Positions 4,771 to 17,246 of a stretch of DNA of 19,740 nucleotides are shown here, in pieces (within the stretch, counting starts at the first letter, position 1; each line of letters begins with the position of its first letter). This DNA comes from Promethearchaeota archaeon (lineage in GTDB: Archaea; Asgardarchaeota; Lokiarchaeia; Sigyniarchaeales; SOKP01): contig JBHLLT010000040.1 of assembly GCA_048938855.1 (NCBI GenBank), positions 1 to 19,740 of the forward strand, given 5' to 3'. The translations under genes and the position numbers were made by a program. The notes below the pieces were generated by a model that searched no databases, was not told the DNA's origin, and saw nothing but the letters and a program-made list of their open reading frames with translations.

Positions 4771-7700
4771 ATGATAAACCGCTTTAGACTTTTTCGAGAT
4801 AAAATACACAGGTTTAGAAGGAAACAGAAAATCCTTACAACCTTAGTTGGACTTATGCTATGCTTAATAATAATGAATTTTTTTTCCTCAGACTCTATGT
4901 ATAATAATTCTCTTAATAATTTACAAAACGATGAGTTCTACATCATCTTAGACCCAAAAGCTTCAGGAGTACCGAATATCACAGTAAATATTCCAACTAA
5001 TTATTCTCTACATGGAAAAACCGCACCAGATTATTCTATTAATATAACTGGAGGCCCAGGTAATTATACTTGGTATGAATTTTTAGAAACTAGTAGCAAA
5101 TCTACTCCTATAGAATTGAGTGGCCTTTTAGATGAAGAGGTGAATGGTACATTTGATCAAGATTTATGGGATAATTTAGATAATGGAACAGTTACTATTA
5201 GATTCTATGCAAATGATTCCCATAATGCAGTTGGATATACTGATATAGTAATTCGGGTTGATAAAATTGCTCCTGGAAAGCCAAGTAATTTAGTAGTAAT
5301 TCCTTCTACATGGGCAAATACAAATAATTATAATTTATCTTGGTCAAATCCTTTAGAACCATCAGGTATAATTGGTGCCTATTATAAATTAGACGGGGTT
5401 CCGACATCAGATAATAACGGAACCTATGTTCCCGGAATAAATATCGAATCGATTACTAATATATCAGTCTCAACAGATGGGAATCACACTATCTATGTAT
5501 GGTTGGTTGATGCTGCAGGAAATATTAATTATACAAATTACGCATCAGCACAATTATATTTGGATACTTCAGATCCTTTAGCACCATCGTTACTAATAGC
5601 TACTCCTAGTTCATGGACAAATGAAAATAGTTTTAGTTTATCCTGGTCAAACCCTTTAGAATCCTCAGGTATAATTGGAGCTTATTATAAATTAGATGAG
5701 GCTCCAAAATCAGATGATAACGGAACTTATGTTCCCGGAGTAAATATCGAGTCGATTTTGAACATATCAGTCTCTATAGATGGAAATCATACAATCTATG
5801 TATGGTTAGTTGATGTTGCGGGGAATATAGACTATACCAATTATGCATCAACACAATTATATTTAGATACTTCTGACCCTCTAGCACCATCTTCATTAAT
5901 TGCTACTCCTGGTTTATGGACAAATATAGATAGCTTTAATCTAACATGGGTAAATCCATCAGAGCTATCTGGAATAGTAGGGGTTTACTATAACTTGGAT
6001 ATTGCGCCTACAGCCGATGATAGCGGAACCTATGTTCCTGGAGTAAATATTGAATCGATTACTGGCATTTCAGTCTCATCAGATGGAAATCATACAATTT
6101 ATGTATGGTTAGTTGATGCTGCGGGAAATGTTAATTATGTTAATTACATAACAACACAGTTATATTTAGATACTTCAGATCCTTCAGCACCGTCTTCATT
6201 AATAGCAACTCCAGGTTCATGGACGAATATAGATAGCTTTAATCTAACTTGGGTAAATCCTTCTGACCTATCTGGGATAAGTGGAGTGTATTTTAAATTA
6301 GATGAGGTTCCTACATCAGATGATAACGGAACTTATGTTCCCGGAGCAAATATCGAGTCGATTACTGGCATTTCAGTCTCATCAGAGGGGAATCATACAA
6401 TCTATGTATGGTTAGTTGATGTTGCGGGGAATATAGACTATACCAATTATGCATCAACACAATTATATTTCGATACGTCAGATCCTTTAGCACCGACTTC
6501 ATTAATTGCTACTCCCAGTTTATGGACAAATATAGATAGTTTTAATCTAACCTGGGTAAATCCATCAGAGCTATCTGGAATAGTAGGGGTTTACTATACC
6601 TTGGATATTGCACCTATAGCGGATGATGATGGAGTCTATGTTCCTGGAGTAAATATTGAGTCGATTACTGGCATTTCAGTCTCATCAGATGGGAATCATA
6701 CAATCTATGTTTGGTTAGTTGATGCAGCAGGAAATGTAGATTACATCAACTACGCATCAACACAATTATATCTAGATACTTCAGATCCTTTAGCACCAAC
6801 TTCATTAATAGCTACACCTGGTTCATGGACGAGAATAGATAGCTTTAATCTAACCTGGGTAAATCCATCAGAGCTATCTGGAATAGTAGGGGTTTACTAT
6901 ACCTTGGATATTGCACCTATAGCGGATGATGATGGAGTCTATGTTCCTGGAGTAAATATTGAGTCGATTACTGGCATTTCAGTCTCATCAGATGGGAATC
7001 ATACAATCTATGTTTGGTTAGTTGATGCAGCAGGAAATGTAGATTACATCAACTACGCATCAACACAATTATATCTAGATACTTCAGATCCTTTAGCACC
7101 ATCTTCATTAATTGCTACTCCTGGTTTATGGACAAATATAGATAGCTTTAATCTGACATGGGTAAATCCTTTTGACCTGTCAGGGATAAGTGGAGTCTAT
7201 TATAAATTAGATGAAGCTCCAATATCAGATAATAACGGAATCTATACTGCTGGAGTAAATATCGAATCAATTTCTGGCATTTCAGTCTCATCAGATGGGA
7301 ACCATACTATCTATGTATGGTTGGTTGATGCTGCAGGAAATATTGATTACAGTAATGTTGGAACTGTTCAAATGTATCTTGATGCATTAGAACCATCAAT
7401 TATTGACTCTCAAGATGGTGATAATAATTGGCGAGATACTGGAGGTACGACATATAACATCGATTTTTCAGATGGTATTACTTCATCTAACCTTGACTAT
7501 GCCCAATACATTATTACTAGTGAGGTTGGACAAGGAGGAATAGTTTTGAAAAATTGGACCTACATTTTTATTGATCTTGGAATAACAGATTATATAGTTG
7601 ATTGGACAATTGATTTTACAGCATGTCAAGAGGGAATAAATTATATCTCTGTAAGAGTTTATGATAAAGCAGGAAATGTAGCGATCTTAAATGATGCCTT

Positions 7701-10700
7701 TTACGTTAAAAAAGATACAATCTATCCCATCGTGACTATTAATGATCCTTTAAATAATTCATACTGGAATTTACCTCCTCCAATTAATGTCTCTGTTCTT
7801 GAACCAAATTTAGCATCTTTAACATATACAATAATTGGATATTTTCCAATAAATAATTGGTTAGAAAACAATACAGAAGAATTATTAAATGAAGATATAT
7901 GGAATAATTTGCCTCAAGGAAAATTCCAGCTTGTAATTACATGTTTTGATATTTTAGGTCATAGTAGCGAAATTATTTTAAGTTTATATAAAGATACTCT
8001 TGCACCAACATTATTAATAAACGCTCCTATGAATGCAACATTTTATAATTCACCCCCATTTTTCAATGTTAGCGCTTTTGATCCTAATCTTGATACAATA
8101 TGGTATAGTATAAACAATATAAACAAAACATTGACAAACAATACTCTACAACAACTGGATTTATCAATTTGGAATGGGTTACCCGAAGAGGGAGAATTTC
8201 AAGTGTATTTCTATGCTAATGATACTTTTGGATATTTAAATAATAATATCACACTTACTCTTTATAGAGATATTATAGCTCCAAATTTGATAATAAACAC
8301 TCCTTCTAATAATACTTATTGGAAAGTAGCACCAACCATTAATGTAATAGTCATGGACTCATATCTTCATACTATTTGGTATCGTGTGCTAGGTACTAAT
8401 ATTATTTTATTGAATAACACAGACCAACAGTTAAATTCGAATATATGGGAAAATTTGCCAGAAGAAGGAGAATTTACAATATATTTTTACGCTAATGACA
8501 CTTCAGGAAATATTAATAATTTTTCTATTTTGAAACTTCATAAAGATATTAGAAATCCATCAATAACTATTAATAATCCAAAACGTAATGATTTGTTTGG
8601 TGATATTGCACCAAGTTTTGATATTTCCATCAGTGAAACCTATTTGAACCAAACTTGGTATACTGTGGTAGGAGGAACTTTAAACTATTCATTTATTGGC
8701 TTTACAGGTCAAATCAATCAAGGCTTATGGAATGAATTTTCAAATGGAACTGTCACTATCAGATTTTATGCGAACGATACTGTCGGTAATCTTGGAATTG
8801 TTGAAGTTACTATTAGAAAAAATATATATGCTCCAATTATTACTATAATCTCTCCTGGAGAAAATGAGCTATTTGGAATTGACGCTCCTAATTTTACAAT
8901 CTATAAATCAGGTCTAGCACTAAATACTACATGGTACACAATTGACAATGGATTTACTAATTTTACTTTTTATGGATTAATTGGTACAATTGATCAAGAT
9001 GCTTGGGAACTTTATGGTTTTGCAAACATAACAATAACGTTTTATATAAACGATTCTCTTGGAAAAATAGGATATGATGTAGTAACTATCAAAAAAGATC
9101 CTGATCCTCCAGTAATTTCTATTACATTTATTAATCCTGTAAGTAATAATTCATATTGTTCGGTAGAGCCAATTTTTAGAGTTTCAGTGTATGAACCTCA
9201 CCTTCTAAAAATTTGGTATAAAGTTGGAACTATAACTGTGGAGATACCAAATAATTCAGATATTACTCTTAACAGCTCCATTTGGGATAACCTCTATCAA
9301 GGCAAATTTGTAATTGAAATTTTTGCTGAGGATTTATTGGGATATGTTAACGACCCTGCTAATTTAACATATTATAAAGACACTCTCGCTCCTACATTAA
9401 TAATAAATGACCCTTATCATCAAGCTTACTATGACTCTCCACCTCCAATAAATGTCACTGTTTTTGATCCAAATTTCCTGACTCTGACCTATACTGTTAT
9501 AGGATATCTTCCAAGTAATATCTGGTTAGTAAATAATACAGAAGAATTTCTTGATCAGGATATTTGGGATGCCTTACCTCAAGGAGAATTTTTTATTAGT
9601 TTTAGTGCTTATGATAGTTTTGGACATCCTAACAATACATTTATTTTAACCTTATACAAAGATACCACTGCTCCAACATTATTGATAAATGCTCCCACAA
9701 ATAATAGTTATTGGAATGTACCACCTTTACTCAATGTAATTGCATTTGATCCAAACCTTGATACTATTTGGTATAATTATGGAATGGCATCAATAGAATT
9801 GTACAATAATACTGACCAATTATTTGATTCTTCTCTGTGGGCTAGTATATCTGATGGTTTTTTTTATGTTGATTTTTATGCTAATGATACTTTTGGTAAG
9901 ATAAGTACGCTAGTACGTATTAATCTAACTAAAGATATTACTTTACCTCTTATTGCTATTTCTTCTCCATTTAACAATACTTATTATTCTAATCCTCCAA
10001 CTATGAATATAATTGCTACTGATATTAATCTAGATACGCTATGGTATATTGTTATGGGTACTAAAATAACCCTTACTAATGGACCAGAACCACTAGATGT
10101 AAATATTTGGAACAATCTATCTCAAGGAAAGTTTCAAGTTTTAATATTTGCAAATGATTCTGCAGGGAATTTAAATGATTTTTATATATTAACCCTCTAT
10201 AAAGATACCTATGCGCCTTTAATTTTTGCTAATTCACCTCAGAATAATACTTTATGGAATTCAAGGCCAATATTAAATATATTAGTATATGATCCAAGTT
10301 TAGATTCAATCAGTTATAGCGTCTTGGGATATTCTCCAATATCACTATTGAATAACACTGATGAGTTATTTGATAGCTTTATATGGACTGAAATAGAAGA
10401 TGGAATGTTTATTGTAAAAATTTTCGCAGAGGATATTTTTGGTCATAATCATTCTATAAATCTAACATTATATAAAGATACTCACGCTCCCGAGATATAT
10501 ATTAATTTTCCTAACCCAGATGGTCTTTTTGGTGATATAGCTCCTGACTTTGATATTTCTGTTATCGATAGTCATTTAGATACCACTTGGTATACTCTAA
10601 TTGGTGAAAATGTAAATATAACATTTACAGGATCAAGTGGGTCAATTGATCAAACAATTTGGAATAAATTTAGCAATGGGACTGTTACAATAAGGTTTTA

Positions 10701-11805
10701 CGCTAATGATACTGTCGGTAATCTAAATCATAAAGATATAACTGTTAGAAAAGATATTTATGCTCCAGTCATTACCGTAACTTCTCCTAGTAACGATGAT
10801 TTTTTTGGAATTAATGCTCCTAATTTTATAATTTATAAATCTGGACCTGGAATTCAAGCAACATGGTATACACTGGACAATGGATTGACGAATTTTACAT
10901 TTACAGGATTAAGTGGTAAAATAGATCAAGCTGCGTGGGATAAATATGACTATGAAACGATTACAATAAGATTTTATGTCAATAACTCACTTGGAAAAAT
11001 TGGTTCTGATGAAGTAATTGTAAGAAAAGATCCAGTTGCTCCCATAATATTAGTAAACTCACCTTTTAATCAAACTGCTTTTTCTTTAGCACCTTTAATC
11101 AACCTCACAATTATCGAACCTAATTTGGATTCTGTTTGGTATATGGTTGACAATAGTATAAGAGATGTAACAAATAATTTAACTCAATATCTCGACTCCT
11201 CTATTTGGGATGATTTACCTCAAGGAACTTTTATTTTAAACCTTTTTGCTAATGATACTTTAGGAAATTTAAATAATTTACTTCAATTACACTTATCAAA
11301 AGATACTATTGGCCCCAATATTACTATTATATTACCAAATGAGAATCAGAGAGTTGATCGAAATGCACCTTTTTTTGAACTCACCCTATTTGATGAAAAT
11401 GGTATAGAAAGATCTTGGTATATCATAGATAATGGCAGTACATCTATAGAATTTACGGGCTCAATAGGTAGAATTAATCAGGATTTTTGGGAATCAATTT
11501 GGGATAATAAAACACATGGTTCTATCATTACTATTAGATTTTACTCAAGTGACAACCTTGGAAATGTTGATTTTCAAGAAGTAAAAGTGATAAAATATCA
11601 ACTACCTCCATTTAAAATTTTATCTAATCCATTAGGATTTATTTTATCAACTATGAGTTTAGGTGTAATGATTCCTATAACTATAAAATTAACAAAAAGT
11701 CGGTATTATGAAAATTTAAACTCCAAAGAAAAGAGTAAATTAAAAAAAGCTCTAATTGCTGCTTTTCTTCTATTATCTGTTATGGTTTTATTCTATATTT
11801 TTTAA
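4771..11805 (+). CDS. Giant cell-surface protein with about 23 tandem beta-sandwich (Ig/FN3-like) repeats, an N-terminal signal/anchor and a C-terminal two-TM hairpin
   Basis: Basic N-region plus hydrophobic ILTTLVGLMLCLIIMNFF; 7 x 101-aa repeats (DTSDPLAP...WLVDAAGN); 14 x ~90-aa repeats (DxxAP...W..L..G.F...YANDxxGN); abundant N-x-S/T sequons; two hydrophobic C-terminal segments. Confidence 0.85.
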   Translation: MINRFRLFRDKIHRFRRKQKILTTLVGLMLCLIIMNFFSSDSMYNNSLNNLQNDEFYIILDPKASGVPNITVNIPTNYSLHGKTAPDYSINITGGPGNYTWYEFLETSSKSTPIELSGLLDEEVNGTFDQDLWDNLDNGTVTIRFYANDSHNAVGYTDIVIRVDKIAPGKPSNLVVIPSTWANTNNYNLSWSNPLEPSGIIGAYYKLDGVPTSDNNGTYVPGINIESITNISVSTDGNHTIYVWLVDAAGNINYTNYASAQLYLDTSDPLAPSLLIATPSSWTNENSFSLSWSNPLESSGIIGAYYKLDEAPKSDDNGTYVPGVNIESILNISVSIDGNHTIYVWLVDVAGNIDYTNYASTQLYLDTSDPLAPSSLIATPGLWTNIDSFNLTWVNPSELSGIVGVYYNLDIAPTADDSGTYVPGVNIESITGISVSSDGNHTIYVWLVDAAGNVNYVNYITTQLYLDTSDPSAPSSLIATPGSWTNIDSFNLTWVNPSDLSGISGVYFKLDEVPTSDDNGTYVPGANIESITGISVSSEGNHTIYVWLVDVAGNIDYTNYASTQLYFDTSDPLAPTSLIATPSLWTNIDSFNLTWVNPSELSGIVGVYYTLDIAPIADDDGVYVPGVNIESITGISVSSDGNHTIYVWLVDAAGNVDYINYASTQLYLDTSDPLAPTSLIATPGSWTRIDSFNLTWVNPSELSGIVGVYYTLDIAPIADDDGVYVPGVNIESITGISVSSDGNHTIYVWLVDAAGNVDYINYASTQLYLDTSDPLAPSSLIATPGLWTNIDSFNLTWVNPFDLSGISGVYYKLDEAPISDNNGIYTAGVNIESISGISVSSDGNHTIYVWLVDAAGNIDYSNVGTVQMYLDALEPSIIDSQDGDNNWRDTGGTTYNIDFSDGITSSNLDYAQYIITSEVGQGGIVLKNWTYIFIDLGITDYIVDWTIDFTACQEGINYISVRVYDKAGNVAILNDAFYVKKDTIYPIVTINDPLNNSYWNLPPPINVSVLEPNLASLTYTIIGYFPINNWLENNTEELLNEDIWNNLPQGKFQLVITCFDILGHSSEIILSLYKDTLAPTLLINAPMNATFYNSPPFFNVSAFDPNLDTIWYSINNINKTLTNNTLQQLDLSIWNGLPEEGEFQVYFYANDTFGYLNNNITLTLYRDIIAPNLIINTPSNNTYWKVAPTINVIVMDSYLHTIWYRVLGTNIILLNNTDQQLNSNIWENLPEEGEFTIYFYANDTSGNINNFSILKLHKDIRNPSITINNPKRNDLFGDIAPSFDISISETYLNQTWYTVVGGTLNYSFIGFTGQINQGLWNEFSNGTVTIRFYANDTVGNLGIVEVTIRKNIYAPIITIISPGENELFGIDAPNFTIYKSGLALNTTWYTIDNGFTNFTFYGLIGTIDQDAWELYGFANITITFYINDSLGKIGYDVVTIKKDPDPPVISITFINPVSNNSYCSVEPIFRVSVYEPHLLKIWYKVGTITVEIPNNSDITLNSSIWDNLYQGKFVIEIFAEDLLGYVNDPANLTYYKDTLAPTLIINDPYHQAYYDSPPPINVTVFDPNFLTLTYTVIGYLPSNIWLVNNTEEFLDQDIWDALPQGEFFISFSAYDSFGHPNNTFILTLYKDTTAPTLLINAPTNNSYWNVPPLLNVIAFDPNLDTIWYNYGMASIELYNNTDQLFDSSLWASISDGFFYVDFYANDTFGKISTLVRINLTKDITLPLIAISSPFNNTYYSNPPTMNIIATDINLDTLWYIVMGTKITLTNGPEPLDVNIWNNLSQGKFQVLIFANDSAGNLNDFYILTLYKDTYAPLIFANSPQNNTLWNSRPILNILVYDPSLDSISYSVLGYSPISLLNNTDELFDSFIWTEIEDGMFIVKIFAEDIFGHNHSINLTLYKDTHAPEIYINFPNPDGLFGDIAPDFDISVIDSHLDTTWYTLIGENVNITFTGSSGSIDQTIWNKFSNGTVTIRFYANDTVGNLNHKDITVRKDIYAPVITVTSPSNDDFFGINAPNFIIYKSGPGIQATWYTLDNGLTNFTFTGLSGKIDQAAWDKYDYETITIRFYVNNSLGKIGSDEVIVRKDPVAPIILVNSPFNQTAFSLAPLINLTIIEPNLDSVWYMVDNSIRDVTNNLTQYLDSSIWDDLPQGTFILNLFANDTLGNLNNLLQLHLSKDTIGPNITIILPNENQRVDRNAPFFELTLFDENGIERSWYIIDNGSTSIEFTGSIGRINQDFWESIWDNKTHGSIITIRFYSSDNLGNVDFQEVKVIKYQLPPFKILSNPLGFILSTMSLGVMIPITIKLTKSRYYENLNSKEKSKLKKALIAAFLLLSVMVLFYIF
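5260..7380 (+). repeat. Intragenic tandem array, 7 x 303 bp (101-aa FN3/Ig-like units)
   Basis: Unit-initial GAT (Asp) codons at 5260, 5563, 5866, 6169, 6472, 6775 and 7078; the next domain starts at 7381. Segment 6541-6798 is identical to 6844-7101. Confidence 0.95.
7714..11595 (+). repeat. 14 diverged ~90-aa Ig-like repeats arranged as two higher-order blocks plus a terminal unit
   Basis: Unit starts: DTIYP, DTLAP, DIIAP, DIRNP, NIYAP, DPDPP | DTLAP, DTTAP, DITLP, DTYAP, DTHAP, DIYAP, DPVAP | DTIGP. Confidence 0.85.
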
Positions 11806-11812
11806 ATTCTCT

Positions 11813-12814
11813 CTAATTTTTTGAATGCTTTAAAATGAGCTGTAATTCATAGAAATTTAATTTTTTCCCCGCTTTTTGCTTGTTTAACGCAATTTCCAAT
11901 TTCTTTTGTTCTAGTCTTTTTAATTTTCTTTTTTTCTTAATGATAACATTAATACTGGATTGTGGCATTTTTCTTGGTCGCAGTTTAGCCTTTTTAGCAA
12001 ATTCTTCTAATACAACTTTTTTATTTAAGTTCAATAATTTTGAGAAGAGTATTTGAAATTCATCAGCATTATTTTTGTTTTCTATTAATTGCTTTTGTAC
12101 TTCCCTCTTAATTATTTCAAATTCTCCTACCTTCCTGCACAATTCAAACATATTCTTATGAGTAAATAGCCTTTTGTTTGAGAATTTAATTAAATTTTCG
12201 TAGACTTCTGTTAAATCCTTTTCAATTGCTAATTTTTTATTAAGAGTTTTATAATACTCATTACTCTGTAATTCTAAAATTTGTTTCTGCTTCAGACCTG
12301 ATAATATTTTCAAATTTTTTTCTTTAATATTCTCCAATTCCGTTAGTTTTTCAATAATCTCATTTTCCTCGTCAATGTTTAGGATTTGTTCATCAAGTGC
12401 ACTATTTAAATTTTCTATTTTACCTTCTATATCTTCAAGAGAACGTTTAGTATATTCAATTGTAGTCGAAATATTGCTATTTATTTCTAGTTTTGGGAGA
12501 GTATTCAATTTTTTAGTAAGAGAATTCCAAAGTCGTTCATACTCTTTTTTTTTTCTTCTTAAATCTTCTAATTTTAGATTGTACTTATAACGCTTTTCAG
12601 TATAAAAGTCTCTCGCATCTAAAAGTGATTTGTAAATATCAGAATCATAGCTTTGGAAACTAAGAATATAATTCTTGAGTTTCATATTCAACTGTTCCCT
12701 CTCAAGCTTAAATTCTTTAACTTTTTTTTGTGCTTCACTTAAGCATTTGTCAAAATTATTGTCGTTTTTACCACTCATTTTGAAAAAAAAATTAGATGTA
12801 CTATAGGATACCAT
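11813..12814 (-). CDS. Archaeal coiled-coil protein (COG1340-like)
   Basis: K/E/L-rich heptads throughout, an EENEIIEKLTELE segment, and the C-terminal ALNKQKAGKKLNFYELQLIL resembling the COG1340 'K.G.KL...EL' tail. Convergent with the giant gene, with 7 bp between the stop codons. Confidence 0.65.
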   Translation of the reverse strand: MVSYSTSNFFFKMSGKNDNNFDKCLSEAQKKVKEFKLEREQLNMKLKNYILSFQSYDSDIYKSLLDARDFYTEKRYKYNLKLEDLRRKKKEYERLWNSLTKKLNTLPKLEINSNISTTIEYTKRSLEDIEGKIENLNSALDEQILNIDEENEIIEKLTELENIKEKNLKILSGLKQKQILELQSNEYYKTLNKKLAIEKDLTEVYENLIKFSNKRLFTHKNMFELCRKVGEFEIIKREVQKQLIENKNNADEFQILFSKLLNLNKKVVLEEFAKKAKLRPRKMPQSSINVIIKKKRKLKRLEQKKLEIALNKQKAGKKLNFYELQLILKHSKN

Positions 12815-13012: not shown

Positions 13013-13825
13013 TTACACTGGCGATGTTTTATCGGGAGTATAGGATTCCGGGACACAATAAATGTGTGCCAGCATTTTATCAAATGCACAACCCGTCCAA
13101 TGGGTGTTAAATTCTATGGTATAATATTTACCTTCAGTAGGATCTTGTTCACCTAATTGGTAACTAGAGTCTAAGCAGACCCAATTATCACAGGCATAAG
13201 GATCAATCGTGAAATTATACCAGACCCAGCAACAACTACATAGACAATCAGGATTTCTATATTGGTCGCTTACATCTGTATAACTGTCTAAAAGCCAACC
13301 GACATACATGTTGGGATTACAATCGTTAAATACAATATTACCATCGGCATCTCTTAAGATCATTAATCCATAATAATCTCCATAACCGGCGTAATGTTGC
13401 AATCTAGGTGTATAACCACCTTTAACTCTAATGACAACCCATTTATCAGCACCATAAGCCATATCAAAACAAATAGGTAAATCGCTTTCGAAATTATCTT
13501 CGACAAAGCATATTTGACCAGGCTCAACGGTATATTGCACAGGATCGTACACTACTTGATATGCTGGCTTGAAACAACTCGGATTAGCTTTTATAAAGTT
13601 ATCTTTAACACTTTCCGCGCTATCGCATCCCAACATAGAAGACGAATTTGAATTCATAGGTAGAATGCTCCTATTGTAATTCGCGGAAAATTGATTAAAA
13701 GCTGTAACTCCCAATATAGATACCATGAACACTAGTAGGGTTAAAAAAACTAGAATCCCTATAACAGCTCGAGAATAACTGTCATTGGTCTCTTTACAGA
13801 GACATGGTTTTCTATATGGAAACAT
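13013..13825 (-). CDS. Cys-rich exported or membrane-anchored hypothetical protein
   Basis: The ORF track uses TTG at 13846. ATG at 13825 is preferred because TTTAAATA lies about 28 nt upstream, consistent with a leaderless transcript. Hydrophobic segment AVIGILVFLTLLVFMVSILGV; 15 Cys including CLCSCCW. Confidence 0.7.
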   Translation of the reverse strand: MFPYRKPCLCKETNDSYSRAVIGILVFLTLLVFMVSILGVTAFNQFSANYNRSILPMNSNSSSMLGCDSAESVKDNFIKANPSCFKPAYQVVYDPVQYTVEPGQICFVEDNFESDLPICFDMAYGADKWVVIRVKGGYTPRLQHYAGYGDYYGLMILRDADGNIVFNDCNPNMYVGWLLDSYTDVSDQYRNPDCLCSCCWVWYNFTIDPYACDNWVCLDSSYQLGEQDPTEGKYYTIEFNTHWTGCAFDKMLAHIYCVPESYTPDKTSPV

Positions 13826-13852
13826 CACCAAATACTTATAGCACAACGAATA

Positions 13853-14083: not shown

Positions 14084-16117
14084 GTGAGTGATATAACATC
14101 CATTATGCAATTAGCGAATAGTATTGGAAAATTAACAGCAGAAAAGATGAAAGAAATTGGAATTGATTCAGTAGAAAAGTTAGCTTCTTCTAATGTAGAA
14201 AATTTATTAGCTATAGATGGTATTGGAGTTTCAAAAGCAAAGACATACATCCAATTTGCACAAAGACATATCCAAAGCATCAAAGCAAAAGATAAAATAT
14301 ATAATATAATTAACAAAGGAGTATCACCAAATCCTTCTAGATCAACGAATATTTCTAGTACTCTAAAATCACCTAATAAAAAACTGGATCCAAGAATTCC
14401 TTTAAGTTCAATAAAACAATTAGCTTCTTGGAGTATTGAAGATTTATCGAAGACAAAAGGAATGGAGCCAGCAGAGGCAAAAAGGTATATCGAAATTGCT
14501 AATAAATACCTAGAGAGTATGAGAAAGGAAGAAAAATCTTCAACTGTATCAAGTATGAGAAAAGGAAGTCAAGATCAACTTTTGGGGTTTGTAAAGTTTA
14601 ATAGTAAAATTCAGTCCCAAAATGTGGGGACAATAACTCCAACCAAAGAATACGAACAACCTCAATTAGAAAAACCTCTTATGGAATATACACAGTTAAA
14701 GAAACCCACGCTTAAGGTCAAACCCTTATTAAAACCAAAGATTGAGCTAAAATCACCTGCACAACAATCAAAACAAAAAAAAGTCGAAGAAGAATTACCA
14801 AAAGTCGAAGTAAAAAAACAATCAGAATTAAAAACCTTTTTCAATTTGGCTACAATGCAGAGGATCCGCTTTTTACACTATAAAATTAAAAGAATAGAGG
14901 AAGCACTAGAAAAGAAGCAAGAATTTTCCTTGTCTGAACTCAACAACGTTTTAGAATATATAAAAATCCTAAATGTTAATTATAAAACTCAAAGCCAAAT
15001 AAGAATTTTTAAAGAATTAGATATTACACCCTCCTTCTATGATCCTATTGCTAAAAAAGAGATTAAAATATGGGATTTAATTTTTGAATGTTCACGAGTG
15101 TTATGGATTGCAGCCCAGGCATATTCTTACCTCTCTAATAAGTTCGAAGCAGATAATTTAATGGAAAACGCAATAGTCACTATGGTAGAATGCAGTAAAA
15201 TGTATAAAACTGCTGCTTATTTTAGTGCAGCATGTACTCGACAGGAAGATAAGGGACTTGCATTATCCGTAGAAAATCTTGAATTAAATTCTGAAGAAGC
15301 TCGTATTCTTGCCCAAAATTTAGCCACCATAAGCGAAGAAAGGAAGGAAAACTTTGCAATGGCAGCAAATTTATCTTCTGGGTTAAGTGCGCTAACAAAA
15401 AGATTAGCATTTTTAAGAAAATATGATAAGAATAAGGAAACTCACTTTAAAGCTCAATATAATTATGATATGGGAAGAGCTTGCCATTTAAAAGCTAAAT
15501 CATTGCTAAAAGTATCACCTGAAGGCGAAAATGAAAAGCAAATTGAAAACCTGCAAAAGAAAGCTAATTACTATTATATAAAAGCGGAAGAAACATGGGA
15601 GGATATGTTAACTAAATCTTCGGATTTAACTGATTCTGAAGAAGAGAGTATAAGAACTAATTTATCGATAGTAAATGATAATATCATTGAGAATGATGTT
15701 GAGATGATAACTGATAATCAAGCTCTAGAAATACAGGATCCGGAGCCTCTTATAATAGTTCCTGAAAACTTAGCACCCTTTATTCCACGTACAACTAATT
15801 TTTTAACCAAGTACAATCAATCAGATTTAAATTTTGATGCTTACCGACGATATAAGAATATTATGTCAGATGTTTTGATTGATTACAATAAAATACAAGA
15901 ATTGCAAAATAACAAAGCAGGAATTGGTCGAACATTAAAGCAGTTAAAAGTTTTATATGAGAATAATGATATTGATATAAACAGCTTTACAGAATTATAT
16001 GAAAAATATTCTATAAAACTAGAATCACTTGAGAGCGCAATTCAAAACTTAAAAAACCCTAAAAACAAAGGTAAAGTATCAGAAGAACAGTCAGAAACTC
16101 TTAAAACAATAATTTAA
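14084..16117 (+). CDS. Helix-hairpin-helix domain protein with putative Bro1-like domain and C-terminal steadiness-box/CdvA-like hairpin
   Basis: N-terminal RadA/Rad51-N-type HhH (IGKLTAEKMKEIGIDSVEKLA...LLAIDGIGVSKA); a second partial copy (SSIKQLASWSIEDLSKTKGMEPAEA); K/P/Q-rich linker; all-helical region with Bro1-like motifs; C-terminal TLKQLKVLYENNDIDINSF. The HhH call is firm; the other domains are by-eye inference. Confidence 0.7.
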   Translation: MSDITSIMQLANSIGKLTAEKMKEIGIDSVEKLASSNVENLLAIDGIGVSKAKTYIQFAQRHIQSIKAKDKIYNIINKGVSPNPSRSTNISSTLKSPNKKLDPRIPLSSIKQLASWSIEDLSKTKGMEPAEAKRYIEIANKYLESMRKEEKSSTVSSMRKGSQDQLLGFVKFNSKIQSQNVGTITPTKEYEQPQLEKPLMEYTQLKKPTLKVKPLLKPKIELKSPAQQSKQKKVEEELPKVEVKKQSELKTFFNLATMQRIRFLHYKIKRIEEALEKKQEFSLSELNNVLEYIKILNVNYKTQSQIRIFKELDITPSFYDPIAKKEIKIWDLIFECSRVLWIAAQAYSYLSNKFEADNLMENAIVTMVECSKMYKTAAYFSAACTRQEDKGLALSVENLELNSEEARILAQNLATISEERKENFAMAANLSSGLSALTKRLAFLRKYDKNKETHFKAQYNYDMGRACHLKAKSLLKVSPEGENEKQIENLQKKANYYYIKAEETWEDMLTKSSDLTDSEEESIRTNLSIVNDNIIENDVEMITDNQALEIQDPEPLIIVPENLAPFIPRTTNFLTKYNQSDLNFDAYRRYKNIMSDVLIDYNKIQELQNNKAGIGRTLKQLKVLYENNDIDINSFTELYEKYSIKLESLESAIQNLKNPKNKGKVSEEQSETLKTII

Positions 16118-16130
16118 TATAGAAACTCTT

Positions 16131-16655
16131 ATGTCTAGTAGAAAAAATAAACATATACTCAAAAATATTTTTAAATTTTTTAAAACTTTTACGAAAATTA
16201 TTTTCTATCCGTTTTTAATAATTACAATTATTATTTTTATTTTTAATCAAATATTAGGAATATTACTAGCAGTTATTTTCTTTTTACTATATTTTCTTTC
16301 TTATTTAATTACTCTCTCTTCCAAGAAAAGGCTTTTAGCATCAATACAAAGCTATTCTTTAATAAATGACACTGAAATTTCCGAAAAGTTAAAACGACCT
16401 GTCGAGGATATTAGAAAAATTTTATCCTCATTATCAAAACATCAGAAAAGAAAAAATTGGCTAGTTGTGTTTTTGAATAAACGTTATATTTTCTTAAATG
16501 AGAATGGTGTCGAGAATTATAAACAACTACATATGCTAGGTTATAATGAAAAAAAGATTTTGGAAGAATTACAACCAGAAATGAATATTAGATCCAGAGC
16601 GGAAGTTAAAGCCATTGAAATAACATTAGCTAATCTTAATAGACTCAATAATTAA
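16131..16655 (+). CDS. Membrane protein with an N-terminal two-TM hairpin and cytoplasmic winged-helix/HTH-like domains
   Basis: Hydrophobic segments IIFYPFLIITIIIFIF and ILGILLAVIFFLLYFLSYLI, then NDTEISEKLKRPVEDIRKILSSL with a beta-hairpin WLVVFLNKRYIFL. Starts 13 bp after the previous stop codon. Confidence 0.65.
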   Translation: MSSRKNKHILKNIFKFFKTFTKIIFYPFLIITIIIFIFNQILGILLAVIFFLLYFLSYLITLSSKKRLLASIQSYSLINDTEISEKLKRPVEDIRKILSSLSKHQKRKNWLVVFLNKRYIFLNENGVENYKQLHMLGYNEKKILEELQPEMNIRSRAEVKAIEITLANLNRLNN

Positions 16656-16823: not shown

Positions 16824-17246
16824 ATGAGTCCTAGGCCTGGACCGATGCGTCGTGGTATGATTCGCCGACCAATTCGCCCCCCTATACGACGCAATATATG
16901 GAGAGCTCGTAGAGTTCTATGGCGCACCACAAGACGTCTGATCTTGGGATCCTCGGTATTATTGATGATAGGTGGTAGTTATGCTGTTTACAAAATAGCT
17001 CAACATGATATTGAAAGAATTGAGCATGAAACGGGGAAGTCTGCTGAAGATATGACGGAAGAAGAATTAAAAACTGTGATGAGAAATTTAAACATCCGAA
17101 AAATGGAACTTACTCCTGACGATGCAATCCACATTGAAAGAGTCGCAAATGAAACAGCAGTAGAAACAAAAACGTTTTGTGTGTATTGTGGTGTTCAATT
17201 AAATGCAAATGCTAAATTTTGCCCCAATTGCGGACAAAAAGTCTAA
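16824..17246 (+). CDS. Arg-rich N-terminus / single hydrophobic helix / C-terminal zinc-ribbon protein
   Basis: SD-like AAGGTGAT just upstream; C-terminal FCVYCG-x(8)-FCPNCG zinc ribbon; T-rich tract after the stop. Confidence 0.75.
   Translation: MSPRPGPMRRGMIRRPIRPPIRRNIWRARRVLWRTTRRLILGSSVLLMIGGSYAVYKIAQHDIERIEHETGKSAEDMTEEELKTVMRNLNIRKMELTPDDAIHIERVANETAVETKTFCVYCGVQLNANAKFCPNCGQKV

Follow-up and report, generated by a model that had tools for sequence, protein, structure and literature searches.

The locus analysed here raises the question of whether two adjacent genes of a Lokiarchaeial genome form a module that brings ESCRT proteins to the membrane, and whether nucleic acid has a part in it. 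The original prediction answered both with yes: a helix-hairpin-helix (HhH) head would bind DNA, a Bro1 domain would recruit ESCRT-III directly, and a membrane partner akin to ESCRT-II or CHMP7 would complete the link, so that chromosome or vesicle DNA is coupled to scission. The window, meaning the whole stretch of 19,740 nt that was analysed, is contig C71 of a Lokiarchaeia genome of 3.95 Mb with 3737 ORFs. ORF1 (14084-16117, 677 aa) and ORF2 (16131-16655, 174 aa, net charge +15) are both on the + strand, as are all of their features given below, and are separated by exactly 13 bp (16118-16130), just as had been described. Those close homologues that bear a name are mostly labelled Promethearchaeota or Lokiarchaeota. 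In GC content ORF1 does not differ from the genome mean; composition thus gives no sign of recent transfer.

A divergent upstream gene (13013-13846, - strand), encoding a transmembrane segment and a Cys-rich domain, is retained close to the pair at 9 of the 30 related loci; it is only loosely associated, and we do not claim it for the module. The window holds no ESCRT-III or Vps4 gene, in agreement with the original prediction; the ESCRT genes of the host (two ESCRT-III, Vps25, Vps22, Vps28 and a Vps4-like gene) are on other contigs, and in the loci read none was close to a paired or a core Bro1 copy. A sigma-70 promoter scan stayed at chance level, sigma-70 models not covering archaea, and a search for an RNA holder listed none.

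Bro1 fold and steadiness box of ORF1

ORF1 consists of an HhH head, a linker, a Bro1 domain and a steadiness box (SB), and it is an N-extended paralogue of a core Bro1-SB gene of about 410 aa, whose copy in the host (G000:C43:23735-24964) is 50% identical to it. Judged from a structure model covering aa 248-677 (pLDDT 84.6), the central domain (aa 248-569; 14825-15790) is a true Bro1 fold. With this model, all 21 Foldseek matches at E < 1e-3 were Bro1 domains, and an exhaustive VIA search placed five eukaryotic Bro1 structures, namely yeast Bro1, HD-PTP, ALIX (two entries) and BROX, at Z 21.0-21.7 (272-297 residues, rmsd 3.6-4.8), followed by the next row at 11.4. The helical domain had been called Bro1-like from its letters, with a generic TPR/SNAP solenoid lacking any Bro1 match as the outcome that would speak against it. 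That candidate was rejected, as TPR-like rows reached Z values of at most 11.4 compared with 21 for Bro1. The ESM Atlas concurs, and its automatic name for the core cluster is 'putative BRO1 domain-containing protein'.

At the sequence level the domain is far from its eukaryotic relatives. PF03097 does not match ORF1, and across 301 Asgard genomes it yields no match above cut-off, which is why surveys would have missed an Asgard Bro1. Likewise, sequence searches of the PDB with A1, A3 and P0274 retrieved no Bro1 structure, so the Bro1 link rests on the fold and on the bridge provided by P0274. This protein is a syntenic orthologue of the core paralogue, with a shared neighbourhood in which it is divergent from an ATP-grasp gene; it matches ORF1 at E 4.9e-23 and PF03097 at 33.3 bits (E 3.2e-8; Pfam cut-off 35.1 bits). 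In comparison with the eukaryotic proteins (yeast Bro1, 1zb1; ALIX, 2oew, 2xs1 and 3c3o; HD-PTP, 3rau; BROX, 3um3), ORF1 shares the whole fold, including the extended C-terminal segment, at 10-15% identity. ALIX, Bro1 and HD-PTP have a V domain, whereas ORF1 has neither this nor a proline-rich tail; its Bro1 domain is followed by only about 100 aa, which form the SB hairpin instead. The HhH head, a feature of the extended paralogue, also sets ORF1 apart from the eukaryotic Bro1 proteins.

The C-terminal hairpin (aa 597-661; 15872-16066) is, by reciprocal profile searches, homologous to the Vps23 steadiness box, the head of ESCRT-I, and the ESCRT-I-type hairpin originally called here was therefore right. 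When run on other Asgard families, a profile of the ORF1-family hairpin retrieves the SB at the C-terminus of UEV-Vps23 proteins, and these proteins are encoded beside Vps28 and Vps22. In the reverse direction, a profile built from seven Vps23 tails ranks the ORF1 hairpin second among the 3737 host ORFs (E 2e-6), behind a Znr-PH-CC-SB protein. Structural comparison is less discriminating, as Vps23 (2f66_A) superposes at Z 9.3 (rmsd 1.9, 65 aligned) and unrelated hairpins tie at 9.0-9.2, and PF09454 has no direct match in ORF1. The hairpin is a homologue of the ESCRT-I SB (the head of Vps23, Vps28 and Vps37, PF09454; the CdvA hairpin), but it falls below the Pfam cut-off and is encoded away from ESCRT genes, unlike ESCRT-I SB proteins. 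The host encodes other SB proteins as well. Known Asgard SB proteins carry the SB on a UEV-coiled coil or on Znr-PH-CC, whereas ORF1 carries it on Bro1; many Asgard SB fusions are patchy, with putative functions (PMC10936438). All Lokiarchaeial copies of the Bro1 family have kept the SB.

The membrane partner and its co-inheritance with ORF1

ORF2 has the two transmembrane segments and the winged-helix-like segments that had been read from its sequence. A tight hydrophobic helical hairpin flanked by basic residues, the predicted membrane anchor (about aa 19-62; 16185-16316), is followed by a tandem winged-helix-like part, presumably cytoplasmic (aa 61-174; 16311-16652), in whose second domain G137, E140, K141, R156, E158 and K160 are conserved. 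According to its structure model (pLDDT 85.4), ORF2 combines a membrane anchor with tandem winged helices, and it belongs to no named family. Its kinship with ESCRT-II or CHMP7, which the original prediction favoured, is not supported. Vps22, Vps25 and Vps36 of ESCRT-II and CHMP7 also have tandem winged-helix-like domains, but ORF2 differs from them by its membrane hairpin, and human ESCRT-II (2zme_B) superposes on one winged helix only (Z 5.2, 66 aligned). The ORF2 sequence matches neither the EAP30/ESCRT-II Pfam families nor host Vps22 and Vps25 (hhalign probability 1.1% and 0.2%), and EAP30 and ESCRT-II are not among the 25 most-matched families across 68 ORF2-family members. In a wide structural search ESCRT-II chains were outside the top 50, an absence that by itself excludes nothing. 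By predicted structure, ORF2 is closer to the winged-helix pair of SelB (1lva, 2pjp; Z about 9.8-9.9, rmsd 3.4, 106 aligned, both domains) and to UFL1/DDRGK1 (8qfc, 8c0d; Z 6-7) than to ESCRT-II. DDRGK1, too, is a membrane-anchored winged-helix adaptor. Identity to these best folds is 5-15%, ORF2 has neither GTPase nor E3 parts, and their functions are not transferable to it.

The two families are inherited together. In the taxonomic family of the host, the Bro1 family occurs in 67 and the transmembrane winged-helix (TM-wH) family in 66 of 68 genomes. Most of these genomes have the core Bro1-SB gene of 410 aa and a stand-alone TM-wH gene, as at G000:C13:40085-40627 in the host, and the two are unlinked: none of the 63 core Bro1 copies has a TM-wH gene within 4 kb, and this partner is not among the genes downstream of distant core orthologues either. 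It is the N-extended Bro1-SB gene that is paired. This gene is present as 37 copies in 31 genomes, and a TM-wH gene lies directly 3' of 32 of them, in all 31 genomes; of the remaining copies, four are additional tandem ones no more than 4 kb away and one lies at a contig end. A pair that is not conserved had been named as another outcome against the prediction; for the extended copies the pair is conserved, and the pairing is retained down to about 42% identity. In the trees, of which the Bro1 tree is a quick version, the paired copies of either gene fall into a single clade separate from the core copies, and the subclades of the two genes correspond. From these phylogenies, the genes of the pair in the window are operon-linked duplicates of two core genes, and the pairing arose once; because of this single origin, the 31 genomes are not independent tests of a functional link.

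A complex between Bro1-SB and the winged-helix part of ORF2 was also predicted. It scored 0.38 against 0.00 for the best control, a mark that 58 of the 80 solved pairs reached, as did 2 of the 110 mismatched ones; of these, only 7 solved pairs but both mismatches scored 0.60 or lower. The runs agree in 100% of contacts, and the pLDDT of the partner is at least 84. The model gives weak support to binding; given the co-inheritance of ORF1 and ORF2, it raises the odds modestly.

The HhH head and the ESCRT-III contact site

The claim of HhH repeats in ORF1 stands, with one nuance. The first module (aa 13-59; 14120-14260) is a clear HHH_5 domain (Pfam E 3e-10; 40.9 bits, cut-off 27) and the sole Pfam match in ORF1, ORF2 giving nothing credible. 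However, the only canonical HhH motif is the GIG at aa 46-48; the others are degenerate, including the second half-module (aa 108-141; 14405-14506; 10 bits). The flexible linker was described correctly, as a basic Pro/Ser/Thr-rich stretch of about aa 149-247 (14528-14824) whose length varies among homologues. An HhH is present in 30 of the 37 extended copies, the N-terminal extensions being basic, and is absent from every core Bro1-SB copy examined. Five or more complete extended copies also lack it, and four of these are still paired with an ORF2-type gene. In the host genome, HHH_5 is also appended to RadA paralogues, eIF2gamma, an FKBP-type isomerase and proteins of unknown kind. The nearest relatives of the ORF1 module are those on the FKBP-type PPIase (47%, E 2e-7) and eIF2gamma (44%, E 3e-7), the RadA module being more distant (36%, E 0.014). 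The HhH is an exchangeable module and may have DNA, RNA or neither as its ligand. The case for DNA binding by ORF1 is weak, because the core copies and some extended copies lack the HhH and because its nearest modules are on FKBP and eIF2gamma; the nucleic-acid role assigned to the protein at first is thus unsupported.

Direct recruitment of ESCRT-III fares similarly. ALIX binds CHMP4 through F199, I212 and L216, which contact an MxxLxxW tail (PMC4312039, PMC4772496). The counterpart of this patch in ORF1 (aa 411-430; 15314-15373) has A414 at F199, M426 at I212 and L430 at L216, in a register chosen by eye from the conserved AQ and KL dipeptides against a primer-derived Drosophila ALIX sequence. 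In the same by-eye register, homologues have Ala at the F199 position in 88%, Leu, Phe or Met at the I212 position in 31, 31 and 27%, and Leu at the L216 position in 87%; two-thirds of the patch is kept, the I212 and L216 positions being hydrophobic. On the side of ESCRT-III, none of 24 tails from Loki- and Helarchaeota, those of the host included, has the MxxLxxW Trp motif. All 24 end in MIM1-like helices, and we found no tail feature that co-varies with Bro1, the tails looking the same whether or not a Bro1 was detected in the genome.

A proposed membrane-anchored accessory module and its alternatives

We propose that ORF1 and ORF2 form a membrane-anchored, ESCRT-I-linked Bro1 accessory module, to which we assign a probability of about 0.5. 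The folds and the co-inheritance are computed, and from them we infer every binding step, as follows. The winged-helix part of ORF2 would bind the Bro1-SB protein and keep it on the cytoplasmic side of the membrane; that ORF2 anchors ORF1 there is probable. The SB of ORF1 could then pair with SB hairpins that the host has on ESCRT-I-type proteins, among them Vps28 (C49:50045) and Znr-PH-CC-SB (C34:455989); in this way the Bro1 domain would enter the ESCRT pathway like an ESCRT-I subunit, and not through an ALIX V domain. The concave face of Bro1 may present a cargo or partner peptide, possibly an ESCRT-III tail recognised by a non-CHMP4 code. The HhH head, an exchangeable part, would have been added later; it may bias the module towards nucleic-acid-bound cargo and is dispensable for the pair. 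In favour of such a module are the Bro1 fold, the SB homology, the presence in the host of Vps28, Vps22, Vps25, two ESCRT-III and other SB proteins, the co-inheritance and the weakly supported complex. Several observations count against it: the lack of ESCRT neighbours, the single origin of the pairing, the absent CHMP4 tail motif, the partial loss of the ALIX patch, the seven sister-family genomes in which Bro1 was not found, and the patchiness of Asgard SB fusions (PMC10936438).

Several of these same observations would suit a Bro1-fold scaffold that acts outside ESCRT, as Bro1 domains of rhophilin or the PalC type do in part; its SB would serve self-association only, and its co-transcribed neighbour might not bind it. 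The missing ESCRT neighbours and the degenerate CHMP4 patch favour it, together with core copies of the two genes that are never adjacent and homologues from other Asgard lineages that have no detectable SB. We consider this reading rather unlikely, since every Lokiarchaeial copy has an SB homologous to that of Vps23, the pair is strictly co-inherited to the limit of identity given above, and an interface, albeit a weak one, is predicted. A module at membrane-bound ribosomes or RNA, used for the quality control of membrane proteins or to sort RNA cargo, would have the HhH and the SelB-like winged helices as its contacts to RNA or the ribosome, and its Bro1-SB part would pass the product to ESCRT. 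It would fit the HhH relatives on eIF2gamma and an FKBP chaperone, the RNA-binding SelB pair and ribosome-binding UFL1/DDRGK1 as best folds of ORF2, and the DnaK/DnaJ-like genes near the pair in four loci. Nevertheless, Z values of 6-10 are middling and give no indication of function, the Bro1 family can dispense with the HhH, and chaperone genes are away from most loci, which makes this a poor candidate.

The coupling of DNA to ESCRT-III, as originally proposed, can draw on the HHH_5 match above cut-off, the prevalence of the HhH among the basic extensions, the basic ORF2 and the two hydrophobic patch positions. Set against these are the copies without HhH, the affinity of the module to those on FKBP and eIF2gamma, Ala at the F199 site, ESCRT-III tails that lack the Trp whether or not Bro1 is detected, and an ORF2 with no sequence link to Vps22 or Vps25; we regard it as improbable. 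The same low credence applies to a bolder possibility, a dedicated Lokiarchaeial membrane-tethered complex in which HhH and winged helices bind nucleic acid and Bro1-SB recruits ESCRT. Such a complex would be a functional forerunner of the links between nucleic acid and membrane scission of the LEM2-CHMP7 or ALIX type.

The accessory module would matter beyond this locus. In the 2024 survey by Makarova et al., Bro1/ALIX, unlike most ESCRT parts, was not identified in Asgard archaea (PMC10936438); here almost every genome of one Lokiarchaeial family has it. Eme et al. 2023 claim Bro1 homologues in Asgard archaea (PMC10307638); in the parts of this source consulted, the supplementary rows named 'Bro1' carry PF18097, which is Vta1_C and not the ORF1 family, come from non-Loki lineages and include three short sequences (under about 160 aa). 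Two structure-based ESP surveys (one is PMC12962969) do not mention Bro1 in their main text, and our literature search for the ORF1 Bro1-SB family or 'archaeal Bro1' found none. The fusion of Bro1 to an SB suggests that ESCRT recruitment once had a single arm in place of those of ALIX and ESCRT-I, and ORF2, inherited together with ORF1, is a concrete candidate for targeting an archaeal ESCRT system to the membrane without ESCRT-0.

The wider distribution of the domain bears on its age. In seven sister-family genomes no member of the Bro1 family was detected; the four of them that were checked all have ESCRT-III, and one sister-family genome (G165, 91% complete) has the membrane partner in spite of this. 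Profile searches recovered Bro1-like domains in a Borrarchaeum protein of 510 aa, in a Heimdallarchaeia protein of 371 aa that also carries a zinc ribbon, and in Helarchaeota, none with a detectable SB. Because of these homologues and its near-universal presence in one Lokiarchaeial family, the Bro1 domain probably predates eukaryotes. One further observation concerns Helarchaeota, where, according to the profile matches, six clusters fuse the Bro1-like domain to an intact JAMM protease; it speaks for the accessory module, although we give it little weight as ESCRT evidence, and the arrangement recalls Bro1-Doa4.

Neighbours and variants of the Bro1-SB and TM-wH gene pair

Among the pair's neighbours in the window, three genes differ in how often they are retained across the 30 related loci that we compared. 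A surface protein of 2344 aa (4771-11805) carries a signal/TM segment, about seven tandem repeats of ~100 aa and many Ig-like domains, and its relatives are found near the pair at 12 of the 30 loci; the long coiled-coil protein of 333 aa (11813-12814) is retained close to the pair at seven. The 140-aa protein at 16824-17246, whose N-terminus is rich in Arg and Pro and whose C-terminus carries a zinc ribbon, has one TM segment and is not retained near the pair at any of the 30 loci examined. Tandem duplications place one TM-wH gene amid two extended (N-extended) Bro1-SB genes at loci L056, L057, L058 and L109. One clade of extended genes (L095, L102, L104 and L056:7405-9219) has a conserved non-HhH head, for which no Pfam match was found.

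Bro1-like and SB-like proteins beyond the pair

In Helarchaeota, a Bro1-like domain is joined to a JAMM/MPN+ protease with an intact motif (L147:559-2319, on G240:C130; P0312-P0318; n = 6 clusters). In G000, the window's genome, the core Bro1-SB gene (the paralogue without HhH) is the reciprocal best hit of the fusion protein, in which no SB was detected. Heimdallarchaeia encode a Bro1-like protein of 371 aa whose C-terminus carries a zinc ribbon (L084:3868-4983, L085:3603-4721, L090:4299-5423). At L084 its gene has an actin-like (ALP/MreB-like) gene on one side and a gene for an Arf/Ras-like GTPase on the other; ORFs of similar size surround it with the same spacing at L085 and L090. The Borrarchaeum-type protein of 510 aa (L042:7840-9372, L043:7304-8839, L087:4544-6079) gives weak PF03097 matches, has an unrelated C-terminal domain of 150 aa and lacks an SB. 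Further large G000 proteins ending in an SB-like hairpin (C28:9046-10923, C34:232428-233801, C64:12177-13691) are candidate ESCRT-I-linked adaptors.

HHH_5 modules and the core TM-wH gene block

In the window's Lokiarchaeial family, HHH_5 is also present at the N-terminus of eIF2gamma (L067:686-2215, on G000:C22; L047:12601-14136), for which our literature search found no paper, and likewise on an FKBP-type PPIase (L065:694-1782). A conserved block (L041, G000:C13:32000-43620; L045; L047; L054) holds the stand-alone core TM-wH gene together with one or two small GTPase genes and an aIF1A-like gene, and at three loci the HhH-eIF2gamma gene as well.
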